Part shown: positions 1,582 to 62,338 of the stretch, in pieces
Layout of the letters: the number at the start of each line of letters is the position of its first letter
Position numbering within the stretch: the first letter of the stretch is position 1
NCBI GenBank assembly: GCA_951406725.2
Contig: OX597839.1
Coordinates: 30,938,001 to 31,002,000 of the forward strand
DNA length: 64,000 bases
Direction: 5' to 3'
Source of the DNA: Octopus vulgaris
Lineage: Eukaryota
The notes under the pieces: generated by a model
Database searches by the model: none
What the model was told of the DNA's origin: nothing
Seen by the model: only the letters and a program-made list of their open reading frames with translations
Position numbers and translations under genes: made by a program

Positions 1582-4325
1582 TATGGGTCACCAAACTTTT
1601 ATCATAGTGGGCCAGATATAGCTAAAAGAATGCCAAGGGTGGGCCGGATAAATATTTTGTTCAATTAAGTACAACATAGAATACACTGAATGTACACAAA
1701 CGATAAAGACAGTCAACCTGTTTATTTAGCAATACATAAAATTGTCAAGAAGGCTGAGGGTGTCTTGGCATCACTCACCAAATCCTTTGTGAGCCGCTCT
1801 CCGGCTATCTATCTGCGGCTTTATATAGCTATGGTAAGACCTCACCTGAAATTTGCATCACCGGTCTGGAACCCCTATCTTGCCCAACCAAAAGAATACC
1901 CTCCATCAGGCATTTGCCATATCCTGAACGCCTTACTTCCCTGGGCATGGACACATTGAAACTCCGACGTCTGGCAGCTGACTTGGCAGACACCCATAAA
2001 ATTATCAACCATCGCACAAACAATAACTCTGAGCACCTCTTCAAACTCCACCCATCTAACACCCGTGGACATATTTACAAAGTAAGAAAACAGCACAGCT
2101 CCCATGACTTCAGGAAAATTTTTTCACGCTGAGAGTTGCTGAAGCGTGGAACAAACTGCCGACATCGGTTGTTAGTTGTCGGAGCACTGTTTCCTTCAAG
2201 ACTTCCATGCTTCCTGAGATTCGCCAACACTACACTTGATTTTCTCCCCTCCATACACACACAAGCATGTTCACTTTCCAGACATTTCTACACTACTGCA
2301 TGTACTTTATATGCACTTTCTGACAAGTTGTGGTGCACCTGAGCACTGTATACAATAATTTCATTATTATTTATTATTATAAAATGCGCAAAATAATAAA
2401 AGCAGTAAACAAGAATTTTTATAAAAAGTGGGTATGTAGCTGAATTGCATAAAATATCATCAACGTTTGCTTTATTATTGCTGCAGCCAACCATAAGAAT
2501 TGCTTTCTAATATTTATCAGTGAACCTTGTCCGATGTATTGACTTCACACATTTCAGTTTTGAAAAAATTTGCTCCAGTTGTAGTTCAGTTGGCATGTTA
2601 TGAAGAGAACAGATCAAAGGGATTCTCTAACAAAAGGATTTCATTCTCAATTCTGTCCAAGATTTGAAAATCTTTGAGAAAAATGCGTATTTAAGACCCG
2701 AATAATTTCTTTCTGAAACTCAAGGTTAACATGTTCCACATTTTCTGTGCAAAACTCTTGAAAACACTGAAAATGAGAGAAGTTTTCTCCTTCAAGCCGT
2801 GCTTCAAACAATAATGGCCTTCTCCAAAATGCTGCAATAATTCTATAGAGATCACAGACAAGGTTATTCTTTCTTTGCAGTTTTAAATTCAATTCATTCG
2901 TATGAGAAGTGACGTCAACTAAAAACGACAACTTTGATAACCACGAAGGATCTGACAGCTGTGGATCAGCTCGATTCTTTTCGGTGAGAAAAAGATCTGT
3001 TTCTCTTCGGAGCTTATAAAAACGAAACAGGACTTTACTGCAACTGAGCCATCTCACTTCTGTGTAGTAAGGCAAGTCACAGAAATTAGAATCCATTTCT
3101 TCAAGGAAAGCCTGGAACTGTCGCTGATTAAGCCCATGATTCCGAAAAAAGTTCACCACAGTTGTAACCGGTTTTAGTACACAAGAAATATCTAAGTATT
3201 TTCCACAGAGTGCTTGCTGATGTATAATGCAGTGTATAAACAGAGCTTTCAGAAGTTGAAGCTCCTGCAATTTGGTCTGGATCCGCCCTACCAAACCCTT
3301 CCTCACTCCTGCCATGCTTTTTCCTCCATCGACTGTAACACACCGAAGCTGATTCCACTAAAGGTTATCGTTTTGCAAAGTTTTCTGCACCTCCATGAAA
3401 ATACCTTCGCCAGTTGTTGTTCCACGTATACTGCAAATGGATGCCATTTCTTCTATAATCTCAAAGTTGCAATTAAAACCACAAATGGACACAAGAAGTT
3501 GTGATGTTCTAGAGAGACCAGCAGACTCATCCCTTGCAAGAGAATACCACAAAAATTTCTTAGCTTTCTCACGTATCCGTAACTGTATATTCTCTCCAAG
3601 TTCTTCTATTCTCCGCACAACTGAACTTGCTGAAAGTCTGATACAGCCAAACATGTTAGCTTTTTCAGGACACAAGTCATTTGCTGCTTCCATCATGCAC
3701 TCTTTTAGAAAGTTTCTGTCAGTAAATGGTTTTCCTCACTCTGCCAACTTATTCACTATTTTGTAACTTACATGAGTGATAGATTCATTTTCAGCAAAAT
3801 TTTTCATAAAGAAATTACTTTGAGATTCCAAACTACATTTCATAGATTCAAATTTCTCGGACCGCAACTTTCCAAAATATTTAGAATGTGTTGAGAGATG
3901 TTTTGCTTTGTAGTGACGACAAATATTGTACTCTTTCATAACATATCAGGCAACTAGCTTTCTGGTCGATAGTTTCCACAAAGAAGTACTTTTCTCTCCA
4001 TTCTTTATTATTTAGAATGCAACATTCATCATCAACCTTTCTCTTCTTAGTAGCCATAATGAAGGGTGAAGAAAAAACAAAAGCAGTCTTAGGCCTCGGC
4101 GTCAGATATTCTTGTTTTAATTGCAATCACTAATAACTGACTCGTCCGAGGCACATGTAATTAATGTGGCAGGTGAAATACACAGCACATGAACTGACTG
4201 ACTCAGTATACATATGACACGTGTAATCAAAGAAGTGTAAGAAGCAGTATAAAAGCATGTTTATTTTTTTCAGTATATGGCAGCGGGCTGGACCTGGCCT
4301 GTAGGCCGTAGTTTGGTGACCCATG
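1582..4325 (-). mobile_element. hAT (SPIN/Charlie, GTF2IRD2-like) DNA transposon with disrupted transposase and both TIRs
   Basis: TIRs (t)ATGGGTCACCAAACT at 1582-1597 and AGTTTGGTGACCCATG at 4310-4325. Broken ORF pieces at 2647-4056 carry KKRKVD..W..KYFF..CLIC, KEYNICRHY, YSLARDES, MAG.RKGLVG, HCIIHQQALC and VRWLS. No clear 8-bp TSD. Confidence 0.9.
1742..2378 (+). mobile_element. CR1-clade LINE 3' fragment inserted in the hAT element
   Basis: LYIAMVRPHLKFASPVWNPYL and PYPERLTSLGMDTLKLRRL..TRGH.YK are CR1 ORF2 C-terminal motifs. The 3' end GGTGCACCTGAGCACTGTA is followed by an (ATT)n tail. Confidence 0.9.
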
Positions 4326-6930: not shown

Positions 6931-8739
6931 TCACAAAAGTTTTTCTCTTCCAGGAACTTGTATTCTTAGGTGTTTTCTTGTATCAGCTTTTCGAATGAAA
7001 ACATTGAACATTTCCTTACTTTTAATGAAAGAATCCCAGAATTCAGGGAAAAACTCCCTTTTCAATAATGCAATCACAGCCTCAGTATCATTGTTAATCT
7101 CAGGCTGAGATTCAGTTTTGTTATCATCCATCTCATTAACAGTTATCAAAAATGTGATGATGCTTGTTGGATATTTGGATAGCATTGTTCTCAGACTATC
7201 ATTAGTAATCTCATTAGAGTCTTCATCACATACAACAATAATATCAAAAAAACTAAATTCATTAAGAGGTATGGAAGCAATTTCTTCCATTAACAACTTT
7301 TGGTTAAAAATAAATGATACATCCCAGTCTGGAATATCTCTTGAAAAATGTTCGTGCAATATTTCGTTTTGTTCCAGACCTTCCACAATAAATATTTTCC
7401 TTTTATCTGTTTTTCCTTCCGATGGATTATTTTTCAAATCGAATTTTTTAGCAATGAAGATATTGAACATTTCCTCGTGTCTGAAGAAAGCTTTTATGTA
7501 GTCTTCAAAAATATTCTTTTTCACTATTCTGAAGACGGGTTTGGGAATCTGAGCATCACCAAAACTCACAGGTTTTGTGTCGGAATGAAAAACATAACCG
7601 TTATCATCATTCCCATCAACAATTATCAAAAATGCGATGATGCTTGGTGGAAACTTTGGTAAGAGTTCTTTTTCAATACGAGCCAAAATTGTTTTCAGAC
7701 TTTCATTAGTAATATGGTTACCCTCTTCATCACATAGAACAATAATATCAAAATAACTAAATTCATTCAGAGCTATGGAAGTAATTTGTTGCATTAACGA
7801 CTTTTGGTTTAAAAGAAAAGACACATCCCAGTCTGGATTTCTTTCTGCAAAATGTTTGTGTAATTTTTCATCTTGTTCCAGACCTTCCACAATAAATATT
7901 TTCCTTTTGTCTGTTGTTTCTTCTACTGGTTTATTATCTACGAGACTTTTTTCCGATAGGAATTTTTTATCAATGAAAATATTGAACGTTTCCTCACTTT
8001 TAAAGAAAGCTTCTAGGAATCCATGCAAGAACTTTCTTTTCAAAATTCTAAGGACTGGTTTAAGCATCTGAGCATCACCAAAACTCACAGGTTTTGTGTC
8101 GGAATGAAAAACATAACCGTTATCATCATTCCCATCAACAATAATCAAAAGAGTGATGATGCTTGGTGGAAACTTTGGTAAGAGTTCTTTTTCAACATGG
8201 GGTATCATTGTTTTCATACTTTTATTAGTAATGCCATTAAGTTGATCATCGCAGGAAACAATAATATCAAAATAACTGAACTTATTCTCTGGTATGGAAC
8301 CAATTTCCTCCTTTAATTTGGTTATAGAGCCTAAAATAAAAGACACATCCCAGTCTGGATTACTTGAATAACATTCACGTAATTTTTCGTCTTCGTTCAT
8401 ACCTTGCAGAATAAATACTTTTCTTTTGTCTCTTGCTTGTGGCTTTGGTTTTTCTTGGTCAACTTCTCTTCCCATTTTCGTAAAGTATTCTTGGAATTGT
8501 TTCTTTAAAGATTCGTTTCCTGTTTCGGAAAGAATCTTGATGAAAGTTTCAGGTAAACAATTTCTTTTTTGTAAAATCTCCAACATTTTCCGAATTCTGT
8601 TGCTTTCTGTATTTTGTGATTTTATAGTTTCGTAATTTCTAGTTGTGATATGACCATCAGACTGTAAATAATCCAGAACATCATCGATTTGAGTGAGATT
8701 CTGGATAATTTGTGGCCGAAGTCTCACGTAAACCTCCAT
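6931..8739 (-). CDS. Paralog 1: CARD-like domain + 3 copies of the ~170-aa repeat domain (602 aa, single coding exon)
   Basis: Uninterrupted ORF whose first ATG (8739, MEVYVRLRPQII) aligns with the ATG of the other paralogs. The N-terminus LRPQIIQNLTQIDDVLDYLQSDGHIT..YETIKS..T...RIRKMLEIL.KR....FIKILSETG fits the CARD consensus. Repeat domains begin (DKRK) at 8430, 7911 and 7407. Confidence 0.9.
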   Translation of the reverse strand: MEVYVRLRPQIIQNLTQIDDVLDYLQSDGHITTRNYETIKSQNTESNRIRKMLEILQKRNCLPETFIKILSETGNESLKKQFQEYFTKMGREVDQEKPKPQARDKRKVFILQGMNEDEKLRECYSSNPDWDVSFILGSITKLKEEIGSIPENKFSYFDIIVSCDDQLNGITNKSMKTMIPHVEKELLPKFPPSIITLLIIVDGNDDNGYVFHSDTKPVSFGDAQMLKPVLRILKRKFLHGFLEAFFKSEETFNIFIDKKFLSEKSLVDNKPVEETTDKRKIFIVEGLEQDEKLHKHFAERNPDWDVSFLLNQKSLMQQITSIALNEFSYFDIIVLCDEEGNHITNESLKTILARIEKELLPKFPPSIIAFLIIVDGNDDNGYVFHSDTKPVSFGDAQIPKPVFRIVKKNIFEDYIKAFFRHEEMFNIFIAKKFDLKNNPSEGKTDKRKIFIVEGLEQNEILHEHFSRDIPDWDVSFIFNQKLLMEEIASIPLNEFSFFDIIVVCDEDSNEITNDSLRTMLSKYPTSIITFLITVNEMDDNKTESQPEINNDTEAVIALLKREFFPEFWDSFIKSKEMFNVFIRKADTRKHLRIQVPGREKLL

Positions 8740-8997: not shown

Positions 8998-9516
8998 TAA
9001 TAATAAACATTGTGTACAGTGCTCAGGTGCACTACAACTCATCTAAAGTGTATATATAACCAGGTGTAGTTTCGGCGGATTTCGGGAAGCATGAGGGCCT
9101 TAAAGGATGCAGTGTCATGGCAGTCAACAACTGACGCAGGCAGTTTATTCCATGCTTCAGCAACTCTGAGCGTGAAGAAATGTTTCCGAAAGTCATGGGA
9201 GCTGTGCTGTTTTCTGACTTTGTAGACGTGTCCACGTGTGTTAGACACATGGGGATCAAAAAGGTGTTCAGTGTTGTTGTTGGTGAGGTGGTTGATAACT
9301 TTGTGGGTGTTTACCAAGTCCGTCGCCAGACGCCGGAGCTTCAGTGAATCCATGCCCAGGGAAACAAGGCGCTCAGAATATGGTAGGTGTCTGATGGAGG
9401 GTATGCGTTTGGTTGCACGTCTCTGGACAGATTCCAGGAGGTCAATGTTCTGAGCAAGATAGGGGTTCCAAACTGATGATGCGAATTCCAAGTGTGGTCG
9501 TACCATAGCTGTATAC
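8998..9516 (-). mobile_element. CR1-clade LINE 3' fragment (young subfamily)
   Basis: YTAMVRPHLEFASSVWNPYL..LESVQRRATK..TRGH..FFTLRVAEAWNKLP with a (TAA)n-type tail. Nearly identical to 47355-47943 and 61304-61879. Confidence 0.92.
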
Positions 9517-10153
9517 GGCTTTCTATCATATTTTAACATTTCTCTTGGCACCAACAGAGAAAATGGGAAAGGCATTACCCCGGAGGATAGCGAGGGAGAT
9601 TTCCATTCAGGTGACCTCGCTTAACATTTCTCAGGGGTGAAGGGGTGGGGAATCGAAATTGATTTCCAATTACCCCCCGCCCGCCCATCCATGCCCAGCC
9701 CCGGGTAATAGGAGATCAATTTTATCTTACCCTCTCCTATGATTTCCGAGTACCTACCTCAGAATCGCGTAAAATTTCTTCCAATGACTTCAAGTTTTTC
9801 AAATTGTACCAGGTCATTTTCAAAGAATATGGTTCTAATGTAGTTTTGCTGATGGCGAAAATCGCATCATTTTTTTTTTTTTTGTAGAAATTAATAATAA
9901 AGATTTACGGAGATGTACTTGCATATCAAGTGACCTGATCTGAGATCGTGTGCTGGAACGAAAACAATTGCAGCGTGGAAGGTGTTTATAAGCCTCAACA
10001 TTTAAATTTAATTTGTCAAAATATTTTCGTTGCTTTGAGACCGCAACCTGTTCACTGACAAAACTCCGCGCTGCATCTCTGTTGGGGCTCGCAAAAAAAC
10101 GATAATTCCCAAAACCGAGTTCAAGAATAAGTAATTCTCAAAACCAGTTTTCG

Positions 10154-17285: not shown

Positions 17286-20200
17286 TCACAAAAGTTTTTC
17301 TCTTCCAGGAACTTGTATTCTTAGGTGTTTTCTTGTATCAGCTTTTCGAATGAAAACATTGAACATTTCCAGACTTTTAATGAAAGAATCCCAGAATTCA
17401 GGGAAAAACTCCCTTTTCAATAATGCAATCACAGCCTCAGTATCATTGTTAATCTCAGGCTGAGATTCAGTTTTGTTATCATCCATCTCATTAACAGTTA
17501 TCAAAAATGTGATGATGCTTGTTGGATAATTGGATAGCATTGTTCTCAGACTTTCATTAGTAATCTCATTAGAGTCTTCATCACATACAACAATAATATC
17601 AAAAAAACTAAATTCATTAAGAGGTATGGAAGCAATTTCTTCCATTAACGACTTTTGGTTTAAGATAAATGATACATCCCAGTCTGGAATATCTCTTGAA
17701 AAATGTTCGTGCAATATTTCGTTTTGTTCCAGACCTTCCACAATAAATATTTTCCTTTTATCTGTTTTTCCTTCCGATGGATTATTTTTCAAATCGAATT
17801 TTTTAGCAATGAAGATATTGAACATTTCCTCGTGTCTGAAGAAAGCTTCTATGTAGTCTTCAAAAATATTCCTTTTCACTATTCTGAAGACGGGTTTGGG
17901 GATCTGAGCATCACCAAAACTCACAGGTTTTGTGTCGGAATGAAAAACATAACCATTATCATCATTCCCATCAATAATTATCAAAAATGCGATGATGCTT
18001 GGTGGAAACTTTGGTAAGAGTTCTTTTTCAATACGAGCCAAAATTGTTTTCAGACTTTCATTAGTAATATGGTTACCCTCTTCATCGCATAAAACAATAA
18101 TATCAAAATAACTAAATTCATTCAGAGCTATGGAAGTAATTTGTTGCATTAACGACTTTTGGTTTAAAAGAAAAGACACATCCCAGTCTGGATTTCTTTC
18201 TGCAAAATGTTTGTGTAATTTTTCGTCTTGTTCCAGACCTTCCACAATAAATATTTTCCTTTTATCTGTTTTTCCTTCCGATGGATTATTTTTCATAAAA
18301 TTGCTTTCCAAATCGAATTTTTTAGCAATGAAGATATTGAACATTTCATCGTGTCTGAAGAAAGCTTCTATGTAGTCATCAAAAATATTCTTTTTCACTA
18401 TTCTGAAGACGGGTTTTGGAATCTGAACATCACCAAAACTCACAGGTTTTGTGTCGGAATGAAAAACATAACCACTATCATCATTCCCATCAACAATAAT
18501 CAAAAAAGTGATGATGCTTGGTGGAAACTTTGGTAAGAGTTCTTTTTCAATACGAGCCAAAATTGTTTTCAGACTTTCATTAGTAATATGGTTACCCTCT
18601 TCATCGCATAAAACAATAATATCAAAATAACTGAATTCATTTGGAGCTATGGAAGCAATTTTCTCCTTTAATTTGGTTAGAGAGCCTAAAATAAAAGACA
18701 CATCCCAGTCTGGATTTCTTTCTGCAAAATGTTTGTGTAATTTTTCGTCTTGTTCCAGACCTTCCACAATAAATATTTTCCTTTTATATGTTTTTCCTTC
18801 CGATGGATTATTTTTCATAAAATTGCTTTCCAAATCGAATTTTTTAGCAATGAAGATATTGAACATTTCATCGTGTCTGAAGAAAGCTTCTATGTAGTCT
18901 TCAAAAATATTCTTTTTCACTATTCTGAAGACGGGTTTGGGAATCTGAGCATCACCAAAACTCACAGGTTTTGTGTCGGAATGAAAAACATAACCGTTAT
19001 CATCATTCCCATCAATAATAATCAAAAAAGTGATGATGCTTGATGGAAACTTTGGTAAGAGTTCTTTTTCAATACGAGCCAAAATTGTTTTCAGACTTTC
19101 ATTAGTAATATGGTTACCCTCTTCATCGCATAAAACAATAATATCAAAATAACTGAATTCATTTGGAGCTATGGAAGCAATTTTCTCCTTTAATTTGGTT
19201 AGAGAGCCTAAAATAAAAGACACATCCCAGTCTGGATTTCTTTCTGCAAAATGTTTGTGCAATTTTTCGTCTTGTTCCAGACCTTCCACAATAAATATTT
19301 TCCTTTTATCTGTTTTTCCTTCCGATGGATTATTTTTCATAAAATTGCTTTCCAAATCGAATTTTTTAGCAATGAAGATATTGAACATTTCATCGTGTCT
19401 GAAGAAAGCTTCTATGTAGTCTTCAAAAATATTCTTTTTCACTATTCTGAAGACGGGTTTGGGAATCTGAGCATCACCAAAACTCACAGGTTTTGTGTCG
19501 GAATGAAAAACATAACCGTTATCATCATTCCCATCAATAATAATCAAAAAAGTGATGATGCTTGATGGAAACTTTGGTAAGAGTTCTTTTTCAATACGAG
19601 CCAAAATTGTTTTCAGACTTTCATTAGTAATATGGTTACCCTCTTCATCGCATAAAACAATAATATCAAAATAACTGAATTCATTTGGAGCTATGGAAGC
19701 AATTTTCTCCTTTAATTTGGTTAGAGAGCCTAAAATAAAAGACACATCCCAGTCTGGATTTCTTTCTGCAAAATGTTTGTGTAATTTTTCGTCTTGTTCC
19801 AGACCTTCCACAATAAATATTTTCCTTTTATCTGTTTTTCCTTCCGATGGATTATTTTTCATAAAATTGCTTTCCAAATCGAATTTTTTAGCAATGAAGA
19901 TATTGAACATTTCATCGTGTCTGAAGAAAGCTTCTATGTAGTCTTCAAAAATATTCTTTTTCACTATTCTGAAGACGGGTTTGGGAATCTGAGCATCACC
20001 AAAACTCACAGGTTTTGTGTCGGAATGAAAAACATAACCGTTATCATCATTCCCATCAATAATAATCAAAAAAGTGATGATGCTTGATGGAAACTTTGGT
20101 AAGAGTTCTTTTTCAATACGAGCCAAAATTGTTTTCAGACTTTCATTAGTAATATGGTTACCCTCTTCATCGCATAAAACAATAATATCAAAATAACTGA

Positions 20201-22751
20201 ATTCATTTGGAGCTATGGAAGCAATTTTCTCCTTTAATTTGGTTAGAGAGCCTAAAATAAAAGACACATCCCAGTCTGGATTTCTTTCTGCAAAATGTTT
20301 GTGCAATTTTTCGTCTTGTTCCAGACCTTCCACAATAAATATTTTCCTTTTATCTGTTTTTCCTTCCGATGGATTATTTTTCATAAAATTGCTTTCCAAA
20401 TCGAATTTTTTAGCAATGAAGATATTGAACATTTCATCGTGTCTGAAGAAAGCTTCTATGTAGTCTTCAAAAATATTCTTTTTCACTATTCTGAAGACGG
20501 GTTTGGGAATCTGAGCATCACCAAAACTCACAGGTTTTGTGTCGGAATGAAAAACATAACCGTTATCATCATTCCCATCAATAATAATCAAAAAAGTGAT
20601 GATGCTTGATGGAAACTTTGGTAAGAGTTCTTTTTCAATACGAGCCAAAATTGTTTTCAGACTTTCATTAGTAATATGGTTACCCTCTTCATCGCATAAA
20701 ACAATAATATCAAAATAACTGAATTCATTTGGAGCTATGGAAGCAATTTTCTCCTTTAATTTGGTTAGAGAGCCTAAAATAAAAGACACATCCCAGTCTG
20801 GATTTCTTTCTGCAAAATGTTTGTGTAATTTTTCGTCTTGTTCCAGACCTTCCACAATAAATATTTTCCTTTTATCTGTTTTTCCTTCCGATGGATTATT
20901 TTTCATAAAATTGCTTTCCAAATCGAATTTTTTAGCAATGAAGATATTGAACATTTCATCGTGTCTGAAGAAAGCTTCTATGTAGTCATCAAAAATATTC
21001 TTTTTCACTATTCTGAAGACGGGTTTGGGAATCTGAGCATCACCAAAACTCACAGGTTTTGTGTCGGAATGAAAAACATAACCGTTATCATCATTCCCAT
21101 CAATAATAATCAAAAAAGTGATGATGCTTGATGGAAACTTTGGTAAGAGTTCTTTTTCAATACGAGCCAAAATTGTTTTCAGACTTTCATTAGTAATATG
21201 GTTACCCTCTTCATCGCATAAAACAATAATATCAAAATAACTGAATTCATTTGGAGCTATGGAAGCAATTTTCTCCTTTAATTTGGTTAGAGAGCCTAAA
21301 ATAAAAGACACATCCCAGTCTGGATTTCTTTCTGCAAAATGTTTGTGCAATTTTTCGTCTTGTTCCAGACCTTCCACAATAAATATTTTCCTTTTATCTG
21401 TTTTTCCTTCCGATGGATTATTTTTCATAAAATTGCTTTCCAAATCGAATTTTTTAGCAATGAAGATATTGAACATTTCATCGTGTCTGAAGAAAGCTTC
21501 TATGTAGTCTTCAAAAATATTCTTTTTCACTATTCTGAAGACGGGTTTGGGAATCTGAGCATCACCAAAACTCACAGGTTTTGTGTCGGAATGAAAAACA
21601 TAACCGTTATCATCATTCCCATCAATAATAATCAAAAAAGTGATGATGCTTGATGGAAACTTTGGTAAGAGTTCTTTTTCAATACGAGCCAAAATTGTTT
21701 TCAGACTTTCATTAGTAATATGGTTACCCTCTTCATCGCATAAAACAATAATATCAAAATAACTGAATTCATTTGGAGCTATGGAAGCAATTTTCTCCTT
21801 TAATTTGGTTAGAGAGCCTAAAATAAAAGACACATCCCAGTCTGGATTTCTTTCTGCAAAATGTTTGTGTAATTTTTCATCTTGTTCCAAACCTTCCAGA
21901 ATAAAAACTTTCCTTTTGTCTCCTGTTTCTTCTACTGGTTTCTTATCTCCAAGACTTTTTTCCCATAGGAATTTTATATCAATGAAAATATTGAACGTTT
22001 CCTCACTTTTTAAGAAAGCTTCTAGGAATCCATGCAAGAACTTTATTTTCAATATTCTAAGGACTGGTTTGCGAATCTTAGCATCCCTAAAACTCACGGG
22101 TTTTGTGTCGGAATGAAAAACATAACCACTATCATCATTCCCATCAACAATAATCAAAAAAGTGATGATGCTTGGTGGAAACTCCGGTAAGAGTTCTTTT
22201 TCAATACGAGGCAAAATTGTTTTCAGACTTTCATTAGTAATATAATTATAGTCTTCATCGCATAAAACAATAATATCAAAATAACTGAACTTATTCTCTG
22301 GTACGGAACCAATTACCTCCTTTAATTTGTTTATAGAACCTAAATGATTTGATACTTCCCAGTCTGGATTTTTTCTTGAAAAACATTCAAGTAATATTTC
22401 GTCTTGTTCCATACCTTCCAGAATAAATACTCTCCGTTTGTCTCTTGCTTGTGGCATTGGTTTTTCTTCAACAACTTCTCTTTCCATTTTCGGTAAGTGT
22501 TCTTGGAATAGTTTGTTTAAAGATTCGTTTCCTGTTTTGGAAAGAATCTTCACAAACGTTTGAGGAGGACAACTTCTTTTTGTTAAAATGTTCAACATTT
22601 CTCGAATTTTGTCGCTGTCTTTCTTTTCTGATCTTATACTTTCATAATTGCTCTCTGTGATATGTTCACCAGACTGTAAATAATCCAGAACATCATCGAT
22701 TTGAGTGAGATTCCGGATAATTTGTGGCCGAAGTTTCACGTAAACATTCAT
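17286..22751 (-). CDS. Paralog 2: CARD-like domain + 10 copies of the repeat domain (1821 aa, single coding exon)
   Basis: 5.5-kb uninterrupted ORF with ATG at 22751 (the ORF track starts at an upstream TTG). Domain starts at 22442, 21920, 21398, 20876, 20354, 19832, 19310, 18788, 18266 (522-bp spacing) and 17762. Confidence 0.9.
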   Translation of the reverse strand: MNVYVKLRPQIIRNLTQIDDVLDYLQSGEHITESNYESIRSEKKDSDKIREMLNILTKRSCPPQTFVKILSKTGNESLNKLFQEHLPKMEREVVEEKPMPQARDKRRVFILEGMEQDEILLECFSRKNPDWEVSNHLGSINKLKEVIGSVPENKFSYFDIIVLCDEDYNYITNESLKTILPRIEKELLPEFPPSIITFLIIVDGNDDSGYVFHSDTKPVSFRDAKIRKPVLRILKIKFLHGFLEAFLKSEETFNIFIDIKFLWEKSLGDKKPVEETGDKRKVFILEGLEQDEKLHKHFAERNPDWDVSFILGSLTKLKEKIASIAPNEFSYFDIIVLCDEEGNHITNESLKTILARIEKELLPKFPSSIITFLIIIDGNDDNGYVFHSDTKPVSFGDAQIPKPVFRIVKKNIFEDYIEAFFRHDEMFNIFIAKKFDLESNFMKNNPSEGKTDKRKIFIVEGLEQDEKLHKHFAERNPDWDVSFILGSLTKLKEKIASIAPNEFSYFDIIVLCDEEGNHITNESLKTILARIEKELLPKFPSSIITFLIIIDGNDDNGYVFHSDTKPVSFGDAQIPKPVFRIVKKNIFDDYIEAFFRHDEMFNIFIAKKFDLESNFMKNNPSEGKTDKRKIFIVEGLEQDEKLHKHFAERNPDWDVSFILGSLTKLKEKIASIAPNEFSYFDIIVLCDEEGNHITNESLKTILARIEKELLPKFPSSIITFLIIIDGNDDNGYVFHSDTKPVSFGDAQIPKPVFRIVKKNIFEDYIEAFFRHDEMFNIFIAKKFDLESNFMKNNPSEGKTDKRKIFIVEGLEQDEKLHKHFAERNPDWDVSFILGSLTKLKEKIASIAPNEFSYFDIIVLCDEEGNHITNESLKTILARIEKELLPKFPSSIITFLIIIDGNDDNGYVFHSDTKPVSFGDAQIPKPVFRIVKKNIFEDYIEAFFRHDEMFNIFIAKKFDLESNFMKNNPSEGKTDKRKIFIVEGLEQDEKLHKHFAERNPDWDVSFILGSLTKLKEKIASIAPNEFSYFDIIVLCDEEGNHITNESLKTILARIEKELLPKFPSSIITFLIIIDGNDDNGYVFHSDTKPVSFGDAQIPKPVFRIVKKNIFEDYIEAFFRHDEMFNIFIAKKFDLESNFMKNNPSEGKTDKRKIFIVEGLEQDEKLHKHFAERNPDWDVSFILGSLTKLKEKIASIAPNEFSYFDIIVLCDEEGNHITNESLKTILARIEKELLPKFPSSIITFLIIIDGNDDNGYVFHSDTKPVSFGDAQIPKPVFRIVKKNIFEDYIEAFFRHDEMFNIFIAKKFDLESNFMKNNPSEGKTYKRKIFIVEGLEQDEKLHKHFAERNPDWDVSFILGSLTKLKEKIASIAPNEFSYFDIIVLCDEEGNHITNESLKTILARIEKELLPKFPPSIITFLIIVDGNDDSGYVFHSDTKPVSFGDVQIPKPVFRIVKKNIFDDYIEAFFRHDEMFNIFIAKKFDLESNFMKNNPSEGKTDKRKIFIVEGLEQDEKLHKHFAERNPDWDVSFLLNQKSLMQQITSIALNEFSYFDIIVLCDEEGNHITNESLKTILARIEKELLPKFPPSIIAFLIIIDGNDDNGYVFHSDTKPVSFGDAQIPKPVFRIVKRNIFEDYIEAFFRHEEMFNIFIAKKFDLKNNPSEGKTDKRKIFIVEGLEQNEILHEHFSRDIPDWDVSFILNQKSLMEEIASIPLNEFSFFDIIVVCDEDSNEITNESLRTMLSNYPTSIITFLITVNEMDDNKTESQPEINNDTEAVIALLKREFFPEFWDSFIKSLEMFNVFIRKADTRKHLRIQVPGREKLL
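18267..21920 (-). repeat. Seven near-identical coding tandem repeats of 522 bp (174 aa)
   Basis: Exact 522-bp period with only scattered SNPs between units. The reading frame is preserved throughout. Confidence 0.97.
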
Positions 22752-29092: not shown

Positions 29093-29953
29093 TCAATAAA
29101 CTTGTAATCCTAGCTGTTTTCTTGTATCAGCTTTTCGAATAAAAACATTGAACATTTCTTTACTTTCGGTGAAAGCATTAAAGAATATTTCGCAAGAGTC
29201 TGCTTTGAGTACTCCAGTCACTGTTTGGGATTCTTGTAAGTCATTCATATTCTCAGATTGGGGTTCTTGCACAGGCCTGGAATTTTGAAGATCGTCCATA
29301 TTCACAGATGGGGATTCCTGCACAGGCTTAGATTCAGTCTCTTCATCATTAACAATAATCAAAAGAGTGATGATGCTTGGTGGAAACTCCGGTAAGAGTT
29401 CTTTTTCAATACAAGGCAAAATTGTTTTCAGACTTTCATTAGTAATATGTTTACCCTCTTCATCGCATAAAACAATAATATCAAAATAACTGAACTTATT
29501 CTCTGGTACGGAACCAATTACCTCCTTTAATTTGTTTATAGAACCTAAATGATTTGATACTTCCCAGTCTGGATTTTTTCTTGAAAAACATTTACGTAAT
29601 ATTTCGTCTTGTTCCATACCTTCCAGAATAAATACTCTCCGTTTGTCTCTTGCTTGTGGCATTGGTTTTTCTTCAGCAACTTCAATTTCCATGTTCAAGT
29701 ATTTTCGGAATTGTTTCTCTAAAAATTCGTTTCCTGTTTCGGAAAGAATCTTCATGAACGTTTGAGGAGGACAACTTCTTTTTATTAAAATGTTCAACAT
29801 TTCTCGAATTTTGTCGCTGTCATTCTTTTCTGATCTTATACTTCCATAATTGCTCTTTGTGATATGTTCACCAGAATGTAAATAATCCAGAACATCATCG
29901 ATTTCAGTGAGATTCCGGATAATTTGTGGCCGAAGTTTCTCGTAAACATTCAT
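29093..29953 (-). CDS. Paralog 3: CARD-like domain + 1 repeat domain (286 aa)
   Basis: Intact ORF, ATG at 29953. Single domain with two 17-aa linker repeats. Confidence 0.9.
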   Translation of the reverse strand: MNVYEKLRPQIIRNLTEIDDVLDYLHSGEHITKSNYGSIRSEKNDSDKIREMLNILIKRSCPPQTFMKILSETGNEFLEKQFRKYLNMEIEVAEEKPMPQARDKRRVFILEGMEQDEILRKCFSRKNPDWEVSNHLGSINKLKEVIGSVPENKFSYFDIIVLCDEEGKHITNESLKTILPCIEKELLPEFPPSIITLLIIVNDEETESKPVQESPSVNMDDLQNSRPVQEPQSENMNDLQESQTVTGVLKADSCEIFFNAFTESKEMFNVFIRKADTRKQLGLQVY

Positions 29954-36872: not shown

Positions 36873-38258
36873 TCAACAAACTTGTAATCCTAGCTGTTTT
36901 CTTGTATCAGCTTTTCGAATAAAAACATTGAACATTTCTTTACTTTCGGTGAAAGCATTAAAGAATTCTTTGCAAGAGTCTGCTTTGAGTACTCCAGTCA
37001 CTGTTTGGGATTCTGGTAAGTCATTCATATTCACAGATTGGGGTTCTTGCACAGGCCTGGAATCTTGAAGACCGTCCCAATTCACAGATTGGGATTCTGG
37101 CACAGGCTTAGATTCAGTCTCTTTATCATTAACAATAATCAAAAGAGTGATGATGCTTGGTGGAAACTTCGGTAAGAGTTCTTTTCCAATACAAGGCAAA
37201 ATTGTTTTCAGACTTTCATTAGTAATATGGTTATCCTCTTCATCGCATAAAACAATAATATCAAAATAACTGAACATATTCTCTGGTATGGAATCAATTT
37301 CCCCCATTAATTTTTTTATAGAACCTAAAAGAGTCGAGACATCCCAGTCTGGATTACTTTCTGAAAAACATTCATGTAATTTTTCGTCTACGTCCATACC
37401 TTCCAGAATAAATATTTTCCTTTTATCTGTTTTTCCTTCCGATAGCTTATTTTTCATAAAATTGTTTTCCGAATCGAATTTTTTAGCAATGAAAATATCG
37501 AACGTTTCCTCACTTTTAAAGAAAGCTTCTACGAATCCATGCAAGAACTTTCTTGTCAATATTCTAAGGACTGGTTTGCGAATCTTAGCATCACCAAAAC
37601 TCACGGGTTTTGTGTCGGAATCAAAAACATAATCATTATCATCATTCCCATCAACAATAATCAAAAAAGTGATGATGCTTGGTGGAAACTCCGGTAAGAT
37701 TTCTTTTTTAATACGAGCCAAAATTGTTTTCAGACTTTCATTAGTAATATAATTATAGTCTTCATCGCATAAAACAATAATATCAAAATAACTGAACTTA
37801 TTCTCTGGTACGGAACCAATTACCTCCTTTAATTTGTTTATAGAACCTAAATGATTTGATACTTCCCAGTCTGGATTTCTTTCTGAAAAACATTTATGTA
37901 ATATTTCGTCTTGTTCCAGACCTTCCAGAATAAATACTTTCCTTTTATCTCTTGCTTGTGGCATTGGTTTTTCTTCAACAACTTCTCTTTCTATTTTCGG
38001 TAAGTATTCTTGGAATTGTTTCTCTAAAAATTCGTTTCTTGTCTTGGAAAGAATCTTCACGAACGTTTGAGGAGGACAACTTCCTTCTGTTAAAATTTTC
38101 AACATTTCTCGAATTTTGTCGAGTTCATCCTTTTCTGATCTTATACTTTCATAATTGCTCACTGTGATATGATCACCATACAATAAACAATCCAGAACAT
38201 AATCGATTTCAGTGAGATTCCGGATAATTTGTGGCCGAAGTTTCACGTAAACATTCAT
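36873..38258 (-). CDS. Paralog 4: CARD-like domain + 2 repeat domains (461 aa)
   Basis: Intact ORF, ATG at 38258. Most divergent CARD among paralogs 2-5. Confidence 0.9.
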   Translation of the reverse strand: MNVYVKLRPQIIRNLTEIDYVLDCLLYGDHITVSNYESIRSEKDELDKIREMLKILTEGSCPPQTFVKILSKTRNEFLEKQFQEYLPKIEREVVEEKPMPQARDKRKVFILEGLEQDEILHKCFSERNPDWEVSNHLGSINKLKEVIGSVPENKFSYFDIIVLCDEDYNYITNESLKTILARIKKEILPEFPPSIITFLIIVDGNDDNDYVFDSDTKPVSFGDAKIRKPVLRILTRKFLHGFVEAFFKSEETFDIFIAKKFDSENNFMKNKLSEGKTDKRKIFILEGMDVDEKLHECFSESNPDWDVSTLLGSIKKLMGEIDSIPENMFSYFDIIVLCDEEDNHITNESLKTILPCIGKELLPKFPPSIITLLIIVNDKETESKPVPESQSVNWDGLQDSRPVQEPQSVNMNDLPESQTVTGVLKADSCKEFFNAFTESKEMFNVFIRKADTRKQLGLQVC

Positions 38259-43710: not shown

Positions 43711-45186
43711 TCAGTTAAAACTCCAAGATGAACAAAGTCCTTTCCTGCAATAAACTTGTAATCCTAGCTGTTTTCTTGTATCAGCTTTTCGAATAAAAAC
43801 ATTGAACATTTCTTTACTTTCGGTGAAAGCATTAAAGAATTCTTTGCAAGAGTCTGCTTTGAGTACTCCAGTCACTGTTTGGGATTCCGGAAAGTCATTC
43901 ATATTCTCAGATTGGGATTCCTGCACAGGCCTGGAATCTGGAAGATCGTCCGTATTCATCGATGGGGATTCCTGCACAGGCCTGGAATCTCGTTGACCGT
44001 CCATATTCACAGATTGGGATTCTTGCACAGGCTTAGATTCAGTCTCTTTATTATTAACAATAATCAAAAGAGTGATGATGCTTTGTGGAAACTTCGGTAA
44101 GAGTTCTTTTTCAATACAAGGCAAAATTGTTTTCAGACTTTCATTAGTAATATGGTTATCCTCTTCATCGCATAAAACAATAATATCAAAATAACTGAAC
44201 TTATTCTTTGGTAAGGAAGCAATCTTCTCCTTTAATATCTTTATAGAACCAAAAGGAGTTGATACTTCCCAGTCTGGATTACTTCCTGAAAAACATTTAC
44301 GTAATATTTCGTTTTGTTCCAGACCTTGCATAATAAATATTTTCCTTTTATCTGTTTTTCCTTCCGATGGATTATTTTTCATAAGATTGTTTTCCAAATC
44401 GAATTTTTTAGCAATGAAAATATCGAACGTTTCCAAACTTTTAAAGAAAGCTTCTACGAATCCATGCAAGAACTTTCTTGTCAATATTCTAAGGACTGGT
44501 TTGCGAATCTTAGCATCCCTAAAACTCACGGGTTTTGTGTCGGAATCAAAAACATAACCATTATCATCCTTCCCATCAACAATAATCAAAAAAGTGATGA
44601 TGCTTGGTGGAAACTTCGGTAAGAGTTCTTTTTCAATACAAGGCAAAATTGTTTTCAGACTTTCATTAGTAATATGCTTATCCTCTTCATCGCATGAAAC
44701 AATAATATCAAAATAACTGAACTGATTCTCTGGTAAGGAAGCAATCTTCTCCTTTAATTTGTTTATAGAACCTAAATGATTTGATACTTCCCAGTCTGGA
44801 TTTGTTTCTGCAAAATGTTTTTGTAATATTTCGTCTGCGTCCATACCTTCCAGAATAAATACTCTCCGTTTGTCTCTTTCTGGTGGCTTTGGTTTTTCTT
44901 CAACAACTTTTCTTTCAATTTTCATGTTCAAGTATTCTCGGAATAGTTTCTCTAAAAATTCGTTTCCTGTTTTGGAAAGAATCTCCACGAACGTTTGAGG
45001 AGGACAACTTCTTTTTGTTAAAATGTTCAACATTTCTCGAATTTTGTCGCTTTCTTTCTTTTCTGATCTTATACTTTCATAATTGCTCTCTGTGATATGT
45101 TCACCAGACTGTAAATAATCCAGAACATCATCGATTTGAGTGAGATTCCGGATAATTTGTGGCCGAAGTTTCTCGTAAACATTCAT
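43711..45186 (-). CDS. Paralog 5: CARD-like domain + 2 repeat domains (491 aa)
   Basis: Intact ORF, ATG at 45186. Three 17-aa linker repeats. TGC in place of the TGA of paralogs 3/4 extends the C-terminus. Confidence 0.9.
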   Translation of the reverse strand: MNVYEKLRPQIIRNLTQIDDVLDYLQSGEHITESNYESIRSEKKESDKIREMLNILTKRSCPPQTFVEILSKTGNEFLEKLFREYLNMKIERKVVEEKPKPPERDKRRVFILEGMDADEILQKHFAETNPDWEVSNHLGSINKLKEKIASLPENQFSYFDIIVSCDEEDKHITNESLKTILPCIEKELLPKFPPSIITFLIIVDGKDDNGYVFDSDTKPVSFRDAKIRKPVLRILTRKFLHGFVEAFFKSLETFDIFIAKKFDLENNLMKNNPSEGKTDKRKIFIMQGLEQNEILRKCFSGSNPDWEVSTPFGSIKILKEKIASLPKNKFSYFDIIVLCDEEDNHITNESLKTILPCIEKELLPKFPQSIITLLIIVNNKETESKPVQESQSVNMDGQRDSRPVQESPSMNTDDLPDSRPVQESQSENMNDFPESQTVTGVLKADSCKEFFNAFTESKEMFNVFIRKADTRKQLGLQVYCRKGLCSSWSFN

Positions 45187-46745: not shown

Positions 46746-47354
46746 TGTATAAATGTATAAATTTTTCGCACTAAATTCTTTCCGTAAAATTTATCAAAAA
46801 ACGCGCAAAATTATTCCGTAGAATTTATCAAATTAAAAAACGCAAAATTAATATATTTTTTGAAATTGCAAATTATTTAGAATATAAAACAAATGAAGTT
46901 AAATTTTAAAAATAAATGTCATATACTTATACTCTGTAAGGTGCTGTGTTCACACTTCAATTTACTATTTTCTAGAAATGTTGCTTTTCTAATTGAAACA
47001 ATTTTTCTCAATCTCCATTTAAAAGTCCATAATGCCTCTTGAGCCATATCAAAATGAACAACTTTGAATTACGCGGCGGCGGTGGTGGTGGTGGTGGTGT
47101 GAGGTGACAGCCTAGCGTCACCACCCGCTTTGCATGCCATTTTTTCGTCTCTTTTCATATTTGCCAGCTTCACCTCTTTCTTCTTTACTTCTGCCGCTTC
47201 AGCGAAACTCTTCTTCTTCAGTAATTCATCCATCTTTTTGATTGCGATAACCATTTTCACTACCATTTCAAGGGTCTTATTACTCTTCATCAGTAAATTA
47301 TTATAACTTTGTTGAATGTTTTACTTTTTGGGGGCCAAGGCCAGCCATAGCATG

Positions 47355-47915
47355 CGGCATCACTCAGCAAGACTTTTGTTAGCCGCTCTCCAGCCATCTA
47401 TTTAAAGCTGTATACAGCTATGGTACGACCACACTTGGAATTCGCATCATCAGTTTGGAACCCATATCTTGCTCAGAACATTGACCTCCTGGAATCTGTC
47501 CAGAGACGTGCAACCAAACGCATACCCTCCATCAGACACCTACCATATTCTGAGCGCCTTGTTTCCCTGGGCATGGATTCACTGAAGCTCCGGCATCTGG
47601 CGACGGACTTGGTAAACACCCACAAAGTTATCAACCACCTCACCAACAACAACACTGAACACCTTTTTGATCTCCATGTGTCCAACACACGTGGACATGC
47701 CTACAAAGTCAGAAAACAGCACAGCTCCCATGACTTTCGGAAACATTTCTTCACGCTCAGAGTTGCTGAAGCATGGAATAAACTGCCTGCGTCAGTTGTT
47801 GACTGCCATGACACTGCATCCTTTAAGGCCCTCATGCTTTCCGAAATCCGCCGAAACTACACCTGGTTATATATACACTTTAGATGAGTTGTAGTGCACC
47901 TGAGCACTGTACACA

Positions 47916-49985: not shown

Positions 49986-50678
49986 TCACACGTAAAATTC
50001 TACGCAACCATATTCCTCACAGGTCTTTGCCTCCCCTCCATATTTAACGAGACGAGCATCATTGGTGTGCAGACCAACAAAACAATAACCCGTGTTTTGA
50101 TTCGTTATTTTCTCTGTATAAATGAAGACATTCTTAAGATAGAAAGTTTTACCACAGAGCCGACAGAAAAAATTCGACCCTCGGTCGTCTTGTTGAATTT
50201 TACGCACATACTGAACTGAATGGCGCAACAAACAATGCTCCCTGTCCATCGGGTTATATTGTTTGTGGCAGCGGGCACAGTGGTAGTTGTTGTATGTTGA
50301 GAAGTGGTTACGGGGGAAAATAATGCCCAGGGCTATAATGTCCTTTGAGTTACGGTACTCCAGTGTTCTGAGAAGAATTTGTTGCAATATGTCTGGATCC
50401 GTTCGGTTTATGAAATCCCTTATTCTCAGGTATTCATTACTGATGTAAGCACTTTTTACAGCTGAGCTTAAGTTATGATTCTCTGCTGTTCTCGATGGAG
50501 ACAACGGTGCCAAGTCCATGTTCATTTTTGGAGAATCAAGAAGAGGTGAAGGGAGATGTTCGTTAGTTCGTTGTAGAGTCCGATATTTCCGTCCAGTGGA
50601 TTGCTTTTGTCTTGGAGTTTTATCTCTTTCATACAAATGTAAAAGATCATCGGCACTGACATATCTCCGCAAATCCAT
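49986..50678 (-). CDS. Uncharacterized ~230-aa protein with a C-terminal Cys/His-rich (putative Zn-binding) domain
   Basis: Clean ORF with coding-like composition. Strong acceptor (polypyrimidine + CAG, exon start 50692) lies 14 nt upstream of ATG 50678. Motifs: HCARCHKQY..CLLRH, CRLCGK, YCFVGLHT, KTCEEYGC. Confidence 0.8.
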   Translation of the reverse strand: MDLRRYVSADDLLHLYERDKTPRQKQSTGRKYRTLQRTNEHLPSPLLDSPKMNMDLAPLSPSRTAENHNLSSAVKSAYISNEYLRIRDFINRTDPDILQQILLRTLEYRNSKDIIALGIIFPRNHFSTYNNYHCARCHKQYNPMDREHCLLRHSVQYVRKIQQDDRGSNFFCRLCGKTFYLKNVFIYTEKITNQNTGYCFVGLHTNDARLVKYGGEAKTCEEYGCVEFYV

Positions 50679-51012
50679 TCTGGTTCCTCCACCTGCCAAA
50701 AAAAAAAAGAAAAAAAAGCAAGAAATGGAAAAAATATGTACATAAGGGATCTGAAAATGTTATCAATCACGCTAATCACGCTAATCACGCCAACCTCAGT
50801 ATACCACCAATCAGCTTAATCACAACAGACTCAGAAATTCATTGAAATTAATACTTCATGGAGAAGGTTTCAAAATGGGTTAATCCTTAAGATGTTATGT
50901 GATAAACTCCAGCATGGCCATGGTCAAATGACAGAAACAAATAAAAGAATAAATATAAATTTACCACTCACATCTCCTTAATTTTATGGTTTATACATAC
51001 ATACATACATAC

Positions 51013-61303: not shown

Positions 61304-61879
61304 AAATAATAATAATAATAATAAACATTGTGTACAGTGCTCAGGTGCACTACAACTCATCTAAAGTGTATATATAATCAGGTGTAGTTTTGGCGGATTT
61401 CGGAAAGCATGAGGGCCTTAAAGGATGCAGTGTCACGGCAGTCAACAACTGACGCAGGCAGTTTGTTCCATGCTTCAGCAACTCTGAGTGTGAAAAAATG
61501 TTTCTGAAAGTCATGGGAGCTGTGTTGTTTTCTGACTTTGTAGACATGTCCACGTGTGTTAGACACATGGGGATCAAAAAGGTGTTCAGTGTTGTTGTTG
61601 GTGAGGTGGTTGATAACTTTGTGGGTGTTTACCAGGTCTGTCGCCAGACGCCGGAGCTTCAGTGAATCCATGCCCAGGGAAACAAGGCGCTCAGAATATG
61701 ATAGATGTCTGATGGAGGGTATGCGTTTGGTTGCACGTCTCTGGACAGATTCCAGGAGGTCGATGTTCTGAGCAAGATAGGGGTTCCAAACTGATGATGC
61801 GAATTCCAAGTGTGGTCGTACCATAGCTGTATACAGTTTTAAATAGATGGCTGGAGAGCAGCTAACAAAAGTCTTGCTG
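61304..61879 (-). mobile_element. CR1-clade LINE 3' fragment
   Basis: ORF 61378-61824, same subfamily as 8998-9516. Confidence 0.92.
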
Positions 61880-62338
61880 ATGTTTCAATTTTCTTTTAAC
61901 TGGTGGGAAGTGTTGAGTCTGTCCTCGCAAGGCACTGTGAGCCTGACCATATTGGTTGCTTTTGTATTCCTGGAGAGCAGGAACATGTCTGGTCAGAGAA
62001 ATGTTGCTACTGTCTCCTCTGGGTAGACTAGTCTGCTCTTCAAGTTCACTTGCGTCTTGCTGACTGAGGTTGAATGCAAAATAGAAAATGGGTCCCCTAC
62101 CATTGCCTTTGCCTTGGCAGCTTTTGTCGTTCACCCTGAGAAATCGAATACCCTTTAGTGTTGGAGATTGGGGCTTAATAACCTTAGATATAGACAAATG
62201 AACGAAAGTGATAATATATGATATATGATTTATAAAAACATGTAACATACAAATAAATATCTGTAAATATAAAACCATCCGAATTTCCGAGTACCTCATT
62301 TCTTCTAATATAAAAAACCTGTACATCACCTCCAAACC

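Follow-up and report, generated by a model that had tools for sequence, protein, structure and literature searches.

Within a 64,000-nucleotide stretch of the Octopus vulgaris genome (contig OX597839.1, positions 30,938,001 to 31,002,000; hereafter the window), five single-exon, minus-strand open reading frames (ORFs), g1 to g5, encode proteins in which an N-terminal CARD is followed by 3, 10, 1, 2, and 2 copies of an alpha/beta unit. The observation of CARD proteins with 18 such repeated units, none of which carries a caspase catalytic dyad, is confirmed, and the units constitute a real, unnamed octopod domain family. A caspase reading of this family is plausible but unproven. That the unit is caspase-derived and non-catalytic, and the protein a CARD decoy or brake on cell-death enzymes, is the favoured reading, which we regard as evenly balanced between true and false.

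6931..8739, minus strand: g1, CARD and 3 units, 602 amino acids (aa)
17286..22751, minus strand: g2, intronless 1821-aa ORF, CARD and 10 units
29093..29953, minus strand: g3, CARD and 1 unit, 286 aa
36873..38258, minus strand: g4, CARD and 2 units, 461 aa
43711..45186, minus strand: g5, CARD and 2 units, 491 aa

A CARD-linked repeat unit of octopods

A preliminary description of this DNA had taken positions 21399 to 21920 as one copy of a repeated domain, counted 18 domains with a single chain of ten among them, and compared the domain with a miniature, catalytically dead caspase. The interval is exactly one whole 174-codon unit, number 2 of 10 in the ORF that runs from 22751 to 17286, and the count over the five ORFs agrees. 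The N-terminal CARD passes the Pfam cut-off in all five genes, a feature shared with initiator CARD-caspases.

21399..21920, minus strand: 174-aa unit 2 of g2, an alpha/beta module that matches no named family, with a predicted five-stranded doubly wound fold (predicted local distance difference test, pLDDT, 57.8)
22509..22736, minus strand: CARD of g2, PF00619, 33.1 bits against a cut-off of 23.9
18267..21920, minus strand: recent 522-bp tandem array, units 2 to 8 of g2, 0 to 14 nucleotide differences between units

A whole-genome search using unit 2 of g2 returned exactly 18 places, every one inside the window. The array of units 2 to 8 shows recent tandem growth, and as an O. sinensis protein with 6 units exists, clustering with g2 in protein collections, an assembly artefact is an unlikely source of the g2 chain. 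All 18 units retain an open frame. By the Nei-Gojobori method, applied to 15 unit pairs, the ratio of nonsynonymous to synonymous change (dN/dS) is 1.4 to 4.0 in young pairs, on just 1 to 6 silent differences, about 0.5 to 0.8 in deep pairs, and 0.11 to 0.81 in the remaining ones.

Relatives occur in O. sinensis, O. bimaculoides, and Argonauta (CARD and 2 units), together with one 56-aa fragment, P0010, that was used only in family alignments A3 and A4. Searching 1.84 billion representatives gave 7 rows, 2 of which (P0011 and P0012) were dropped as low-complexity or repeat matches; no credible prokaryotic relative was found among these representatives, and none of the 99 pattern matches in viral contigs was a relative. 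A distant member, L037 1501-2301 (G000:C20:33247247-33248047, plus strand), was reached via its CARD. It is a single-exon, 267-aa protein of CARD and one unit with approximately 21 to 24% identity to the family, which aligns along the unit, retains Cys61, and shows two adjacent Cys after strand 4; it has one orthologue, at 78% identity. Within what was searched, the unit family looks restricted to octopods. We found no paper on these loci, this architecture, or tandem pseudocaspase chains in a literature search whose coverage left out most subscription journals.

The CARDs themselves point in the direction of caspases. In a tree of octopus CARDs (35 rows; support given as pairs of values), those of the g1 to g5 family form one clade (96/86), placed in a wider branch (87/93) with L037, one CARD-CARD protein, and two groups of intronless CARD-caspases, with the remaining octopus CARDs outside it. 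CARD ORFs noted elsewhere in the genome are a CARD-CARD ORF at L027 (G000:C20:71.93 Mb) and, at L093-L103 (C14:75.5-75.6 Mb), a cluster of CARD ORFs followed by a segment that by eye resembles a death domain.

Possible sequence kinship between the unit and caspases

Kinship was assessed with 48 aligned caspases of the octopus genome and, as rivals, 14 TIR, 8 Ras, 29 receiver (E. coli), and 15 DUF3226 sequences. In hhalign, the unit profile scores 22.6 to 24.8 against all 48 caspases, compared with 15.1 to 17.4 for TIR (15.1 being within shuffles), 17.2 for Ras, 13.7 over 7 columns for receivers, and 18.5 for DUF3226; unrelated family pairs score 10.6 to 20.9, with a maximum of 19.8 in one benchmark set. 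A caspase score of 22.7 was reached by none of the shuffles, of which there were three types with 40 each. When a hidden Markov model (HMM) of the unit was used, caspases took ranks 1 to 18 among 352 scored sequences (464 offered), the best at 14.1 bits versus 4.6 for the best decoy, and the top 16 caspases all came from the C5 cluster. In the reverse direction, an HMM of these 16 C5 caspases put units at ranks 1 to 14 (best 8.8, best decoy 2.8). The units reach an hhalign score of 30.8 against the C5 clade alone, reached by 2 of 156 element shuffles, both of which kept neighbouring elements together. Pairwise, unit 1 of g2 scores 72 against caspase L053, which no shuffle of 150 reached, and unit 2 scores 55 against a caspase, which 15 of 150 reached.

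Two ways of laying the unit on a caspase emerge from these comparisons, and they differ in the residues that fall at the catalytic positions.

21735..21740, minus strand: Cys61-Asp62, end of strand 3; His position in the whole-domain register; Cys in 25/25 and Asp in 23/25 distinct units across octopods
21618..21623, minus strand: Asp100-Gly101, end of strand 4; Cys position in the whole-domain register, His-Gly position in the profile register
21543..21620, minus strand: variable acidic loop between strands 4 and 5, 14 to 59 aa across the family with 1 to 6 Asp, low confidence in both structure models
21561..21731, minus strand: residues 64 to 120, to which the caspase signal is confined at the profile level (hhalign 24.5 over 52 columns versus 14.0 to 18.5 for four rival families)

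The whole-domain register, which is that of the preliminary description, equates strand 3 of the unit with strand 3 of the caspase, and is followed by the pairwise alignments of window units and by 11 of the first 12 C5-HMM matches. In the profile register, residues 64 to 120 of the unit are matched to helix B, strand 3, and the post-His-Gly hairpin of the caspase. This alignment ranks first for the C5, C19/C28, and pooled non-C5 sets and is also taken by Argonauta unit 1 (score 60, reached by 6 of 150 shuffles). Segments 1-66, 1-95, and 120-174 give only background hhalign scores, and the whole-domain register obtains 12.9 in the profile-profile test against C5. The proposal that the Cys-Asp pair sits at the caspase His position agrees with most pairwise and clade-HMM matches but not with the profile-profile alignment, which puts that position at Asp100 rather than Asp62. 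Only in the whole-domain register does the acidic loop after strand 4 take the place of the intersubunit linker. This loop is 42 to 59 aa long in the terminal units of g3 to g5 as against 26 aa in internal units; there (29093-29647, 36873-37427, and 43711-44352), short repeated acidic peptides are inserted in it.

Under the profile register the unit would amount to no more than a large subunit, and Asp100 would take the place of the catalytic His. The strand pattern of both structure models appears to fit the whole-domain register better. An internal helix-strand repeat that could reconcile the two was not found by self-alignment (best off-diagonal score 13.7), and since the registers are mutually exclusive, at least one match of this strength must be due to chance. 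Taken singly, a caspase-derived unit in the whole-domain register is unlikely, and a large-subunit-only module slightly more so.

Whichever register is used, the catalytic dyad is missing, as had been proposed. The pentapeptide around the caspase catalytic Cys is found in 0 of the 18 window units, and the His position is occupied by Asp in either case (Asp62 or Asp100). A His-Gly pair is present in 4 of the 18, within a late helix and not following a core strand.

The predicted fold

An AlphaFold2 model of unit 2 of g2 (model 1; pLDDT 57.8, or 58 when rounded) has five strands, five helices, and a disordered loop, with no helix between strands 4 and 5. A second model, of a terminal unit with distant members added (model 2; pLDDT 52), likewise has no helix there. 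Compared by VIA-align, model 1 matches procaspase-6 (Z 7.8, root-mean-square deviation [rmsd] 5.7, 151 residues), c-FLIP-L (3h13; Z 7.6, rmsd 4.9, 145 residues), and CED-3 (Z 7.4, rmsd 4.3, 137 residues), across both subunits, and its caspase alignments extend over 133 to 156 residues; according to the tool's own remark, Z values of 7 to 8 are usual for models without a clear match. The order of elements drawn in the preliminary description to parallel a caspase is present in model 1, with five strands and nothing helical between strands 4 and 5, but receivers match equally well, and the parallel in sequence stays a matter of interpretation. One detail of that drawing needs amending: the strand-1 motif it quoted applies from unit 3 onward, strand 1 of g2 unit 2 being Val-Phe-Ile-Leu. 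The last motif, a putative strand 6, is rendered by model 1 as a helix. A two-copy complex prediction for unit 2 scored 0.00 twice and, the fold of the unit itself being uncertain, counts neither way.

Weighing the caspase reading

Several results weigh against a caspase origin. No unit matched any Pfam family, PF00072 included, and PF00656 gave no match up to E 10 in the five proteins or in the 15 members of A3, in searches where HMMER filters drop most weak matches; PDB sequence searches gave no match for the unit, and a PDB search with alignment A4 gave rows that nearly all matched the CARD part and in no case a caspase protease domain. With neither the PF00656 profile nor the catalytic dyad detected, the unit is not a member of Peptidase_C14. 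The profile signal hangs on one clade of 16 close paralogues (C5): when this clade is left out, hhalign falls to 20.9, a value surpassed by at least 6 of 156 element shuffles, and TIR scores 20.6 on the remaining caspases. No preference for units is seen with an HMM built from the full set of 48 caspases, nor with those built from the C19/C28 group or the C26 CARD-caspases, and the L037 unit has no pairwise caspase signal, its score being reached by 61 of 150 shuffles. That two mutually exclusive registers both score indicates that chance matches of such size occur here. In the CARD tree, the 87/93 branch is below the starred support level, and long branches meet there.

The structural comparisons add to this. 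Both models are of low confidence, and for neither was there a Foldseek row at E 0.001 or better; the weak rows of model 1 include many caspases and receivers, and TIR/SEFIR domains appear in Foldseek as weak rows only. A caspase fold as the top match would have supported the preliminary description. Instead, receivers tie with caspases for model 1 (Z 7.9, rmsd 2.9, 108 residues), and for model 2 every entry in the VIA lists is a receiver-like fold, the best at Z 8.8. Caspases are in neither top 50, although their absence from these lists does not exclude them. The preliminary description would have given up the caspase fold had a structure search returned another one, which is the outcome for model 2 at its pLDDT of 52 but not for model 1, where caspases are tied. 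Caspases and receivers have the same order of first strands. What tells the two topologies apart lies between strands 4 and 5, where both models are at their least confident (pLDDT below 50).

As the main alternative, the unit could be of non-caspase origin, a flavodoxin-like interaction module of receiver or TIR/SEFIR type fused to a CARD, and the protein a signalling adaptor. We see this as a real possibility, if on balance an improbable one. Receivers top or tie all four VIA searches (Z 7.9 to 8.8, rmsd approximately 3, approximately 110 residues), making receiver or pseudo-receiver domains (PF00072) the best or tied structural match of both models, and the confinement of the caspase signal to one clade suits such an origin. 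The active-site residues of receivers sit at the ends of strands 1 and 3. In the unit, strand 3 ends in Asp in 23 of 25 distinct units and strand 1 in an acidic residue in 18 of 25, which is in line with this arrangement. Against it stands the lack of a sequence signal, with the hhalign score of 13.7 for the 29 E. coli receivers and 15.1 for the 14 octopus TIRs quoted above, both at background level, the latter lying within shuffles. The receiver helix between strands 4 and 5 (helix 4) is missing from both models, the host is an animal, no credible prokaryotic relative emerged from the representatives searched, and the Z values fall at or near the range that is usual where there is no clear match.

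Conserved residues and further alternatives

Of 29 units, 25 are distinct, and residue conservation was followed over these; they come from Octopus, Argonauta, and the L037 group of distant members. The Cys-Asp pair after strand 3, described as invariant, is so in the window (18 of 18 units). Across octopods, the Cys holds in all 25 distinct units, but the Asp in 23, having been lost in both Argonauta units. Only four positions are invariant over the 25: Leu40, Cys61, Leu96, and Phe143. It could be speculated that, whatever its origin, the unit works through Cys61 as a cysteine-dependent enzyme or as a redox sensor and is switched on by CARD oligomerisation, for which this conservation and the place of Cys61 at the C-terminal end of a central strand in both models would speak. 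We hold this to be improbable. The deep members have no conserved His column, young paralogues change more in amino acids than silently, and as Leu40, Leu96, and Phe143 are all hydrophobic, Cys61 is more simply read as a structural residue buried in the core.

It is very improbable that the CARD alone is functional, with the units carried along as passengers and their number drifting through unequal crossing-over. The small differences among units 2 to 8 of g2 (0 to 14 of 522 bases) and a unit number ranging from 1 to 10 would be expected of such drift, but the frame is open in every window unit, dN/dS of deep pairs stays below one, and both Argonauta and the distant L037 group still have the module. 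Least probable of all is a TOPRIM-like metal-binding domain (DUF3226, PF11536), to which an ESM Atlas feature search (DUF3226 clusters at 0.91 to 0.92), a Glu-Gly that follows strand 1, and acidic residues that follow strand 3 might point, but for which 142 to 145 of 256 features are shared, below the 170 usual for true members, the L037 unit returns unrelated matches at 0.82 or lower, and the hhalign score of 18.5 against 15 proteins is out of register, unit strand 4 being paired with DUF strand 1.

A possible role and its relation to known systems

Returning to the caspase-derived reading, the family could have originated from an intronless CARD-caspase through loss of catalysis and of the substrate loops. 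Its CARD would probably recruit the protein by CARD-CARD contact to octopus CARD-caspase platforms, as in CARD-only inhibitors, and the units may supply bulk, avidity, or a bait surface and copy number may tune the dose. The outcome would be that caspase activation is damped or tuned without cutting. A more daring version can be put forward, in which a CARD is followed by as many as ten dead caspase modules of miniature size, perhaps corresponding to the large subunit alone, and the protein serves as a multivalent bait or sponge that captures caspases or pathogen factors directed at them, with copy number and surface residues changing fast; we think this unlikely.

The recruitment domains of cFLIP are of the DED type, and CSP-3 of Caenorhabditis elegans resembles one caspase subunit only. 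The comparison with a c-FLIP-like decoy that had been drawn for these proteins is apt in that a CARD is combined with a compact alpha/beta module without the His-Cys dyad, and fails in that cFLIP has a tandem death effector domain (DED) prodomain where a single CARD is found here. As presented in PMC11121540, cFLIP-L, a tied top fold match of model 1, is similar in joining a death-fold prodomain to a domain without catalytic residues, but differs in that its caspase domain is single, can be recognised clearly, and enters into an active heterodimer. The octopus proteins have 1 to 10 units of 158 to 214 aa with no Peptidase_C14 match and no evident dimer strand. An activating heterodimer of the cFLIP-L type would depend on the last strand; as this is a helix in model 1 and absent in the large-subunit reading, a dominant-negative decoy is favoured.

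Caspase-12 and CARD16/17/18 offer a further parallel, being modulators that bear a CARD, have no proteolytic activity, and originated within a caspase cluster (PMC11121540; see also PMC4420773). Caspase-12 keeps one near-intact caspase domain and the CARD-only proteins none, and tandem units are described for neither in the passages concerned. In Caenorhabditis elegans, CSP-2 and CSP-3 are caspase homologues that inhibit CED-3 activation, CSP-3 having no active site, and thus provide a precedent for a partial-caspase inhibitor; the part of PMC3591282 concerned does not describe them as repeat-bearing CARD proteins, and their caspase kinship is clear where that of the octopus unit is weak.

The closest setting is found in the octopus itself, whose genome has 83 Peptidase_C14 (PF00656) matches. 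Intronless CARD-caspases at C26:33.70-33.81 Mb, named caspase-7-like, lie on the same contig as the window, combine a CARD of the same branch with an alpha/beta domain in a single ORF, and have in some cases replaced the catalytic Cys. They differ in passing the Peptidase_C14 cut-off, and neither HMM nor hhalign comparison shows any similarity of their protease domain to the unit. This cluster (G000:C26:33.70-33.81 Mb, L110-L119) is 2.7 Mb away and contains about 20 of the Peptidase_C14 matches; some members have a very short linker, some have Tyr for the catalytic Cys, and some are broken or CARD-only. Large tandem caspase clusters with the protease domain in one open frame are located at C5:54.15-54.52 Mb, C19:7.04-7.13 Mb, and C28:6.29-6.38 Mb. 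The caspase ORFs of L120-L123 (C20, C5, C7, and C28) pass the Pfam cut-off without one or both dyad residues and look like ordinary pseudocaspases. As several octopus caspases lack dyad residues, dead caspase copies arise often in this genome, which raises the prior for a caspase-derived unit.

Divergent Octopus CARD-caspases, caspase-Y1 and caspase-Y2, are reported in passages of PMC10959488, their correspondence to the C26 loci not being established; those passages do not mention the unit family. They state that molluscs have no caspase-9 and, in that study's searches, no Apaf-1. A CARD family that is specific to octopods, changes fast, and carries an unnamed module offers a direct handle on how molluscan CARD-caspases are switched on and restrained. 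If the caspase reading is true, reduction of a caspase domain to about 160 residues and its linking into chains are possible; if not, the unit defines a new CARD-linked domain family. Under either reading, it would be a lineage-restricted regulator rather than a general mechanism.

Other observations in the window

Contigs of four sequencing runs, guessed to be RNA, cover g4 and mostly drop off upstream of it; with no silent stretch as control, we make no claim of expression. A loose contig end upstream of g4 was considered as splice evidence and rejected, being an exact match to the flank of the paralogue g5. A minus-strand ORF of 257 codons at 49986-50759 contains Cys pairs, and no match to it passes a Pfam cut-off. 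ORF fragments that by eye resemble transposases or long interspersed nuclear elements (LINE-like) are present at 32-766, 2647-3735, 9039-9620, 47351-47887, and 61378-61884.

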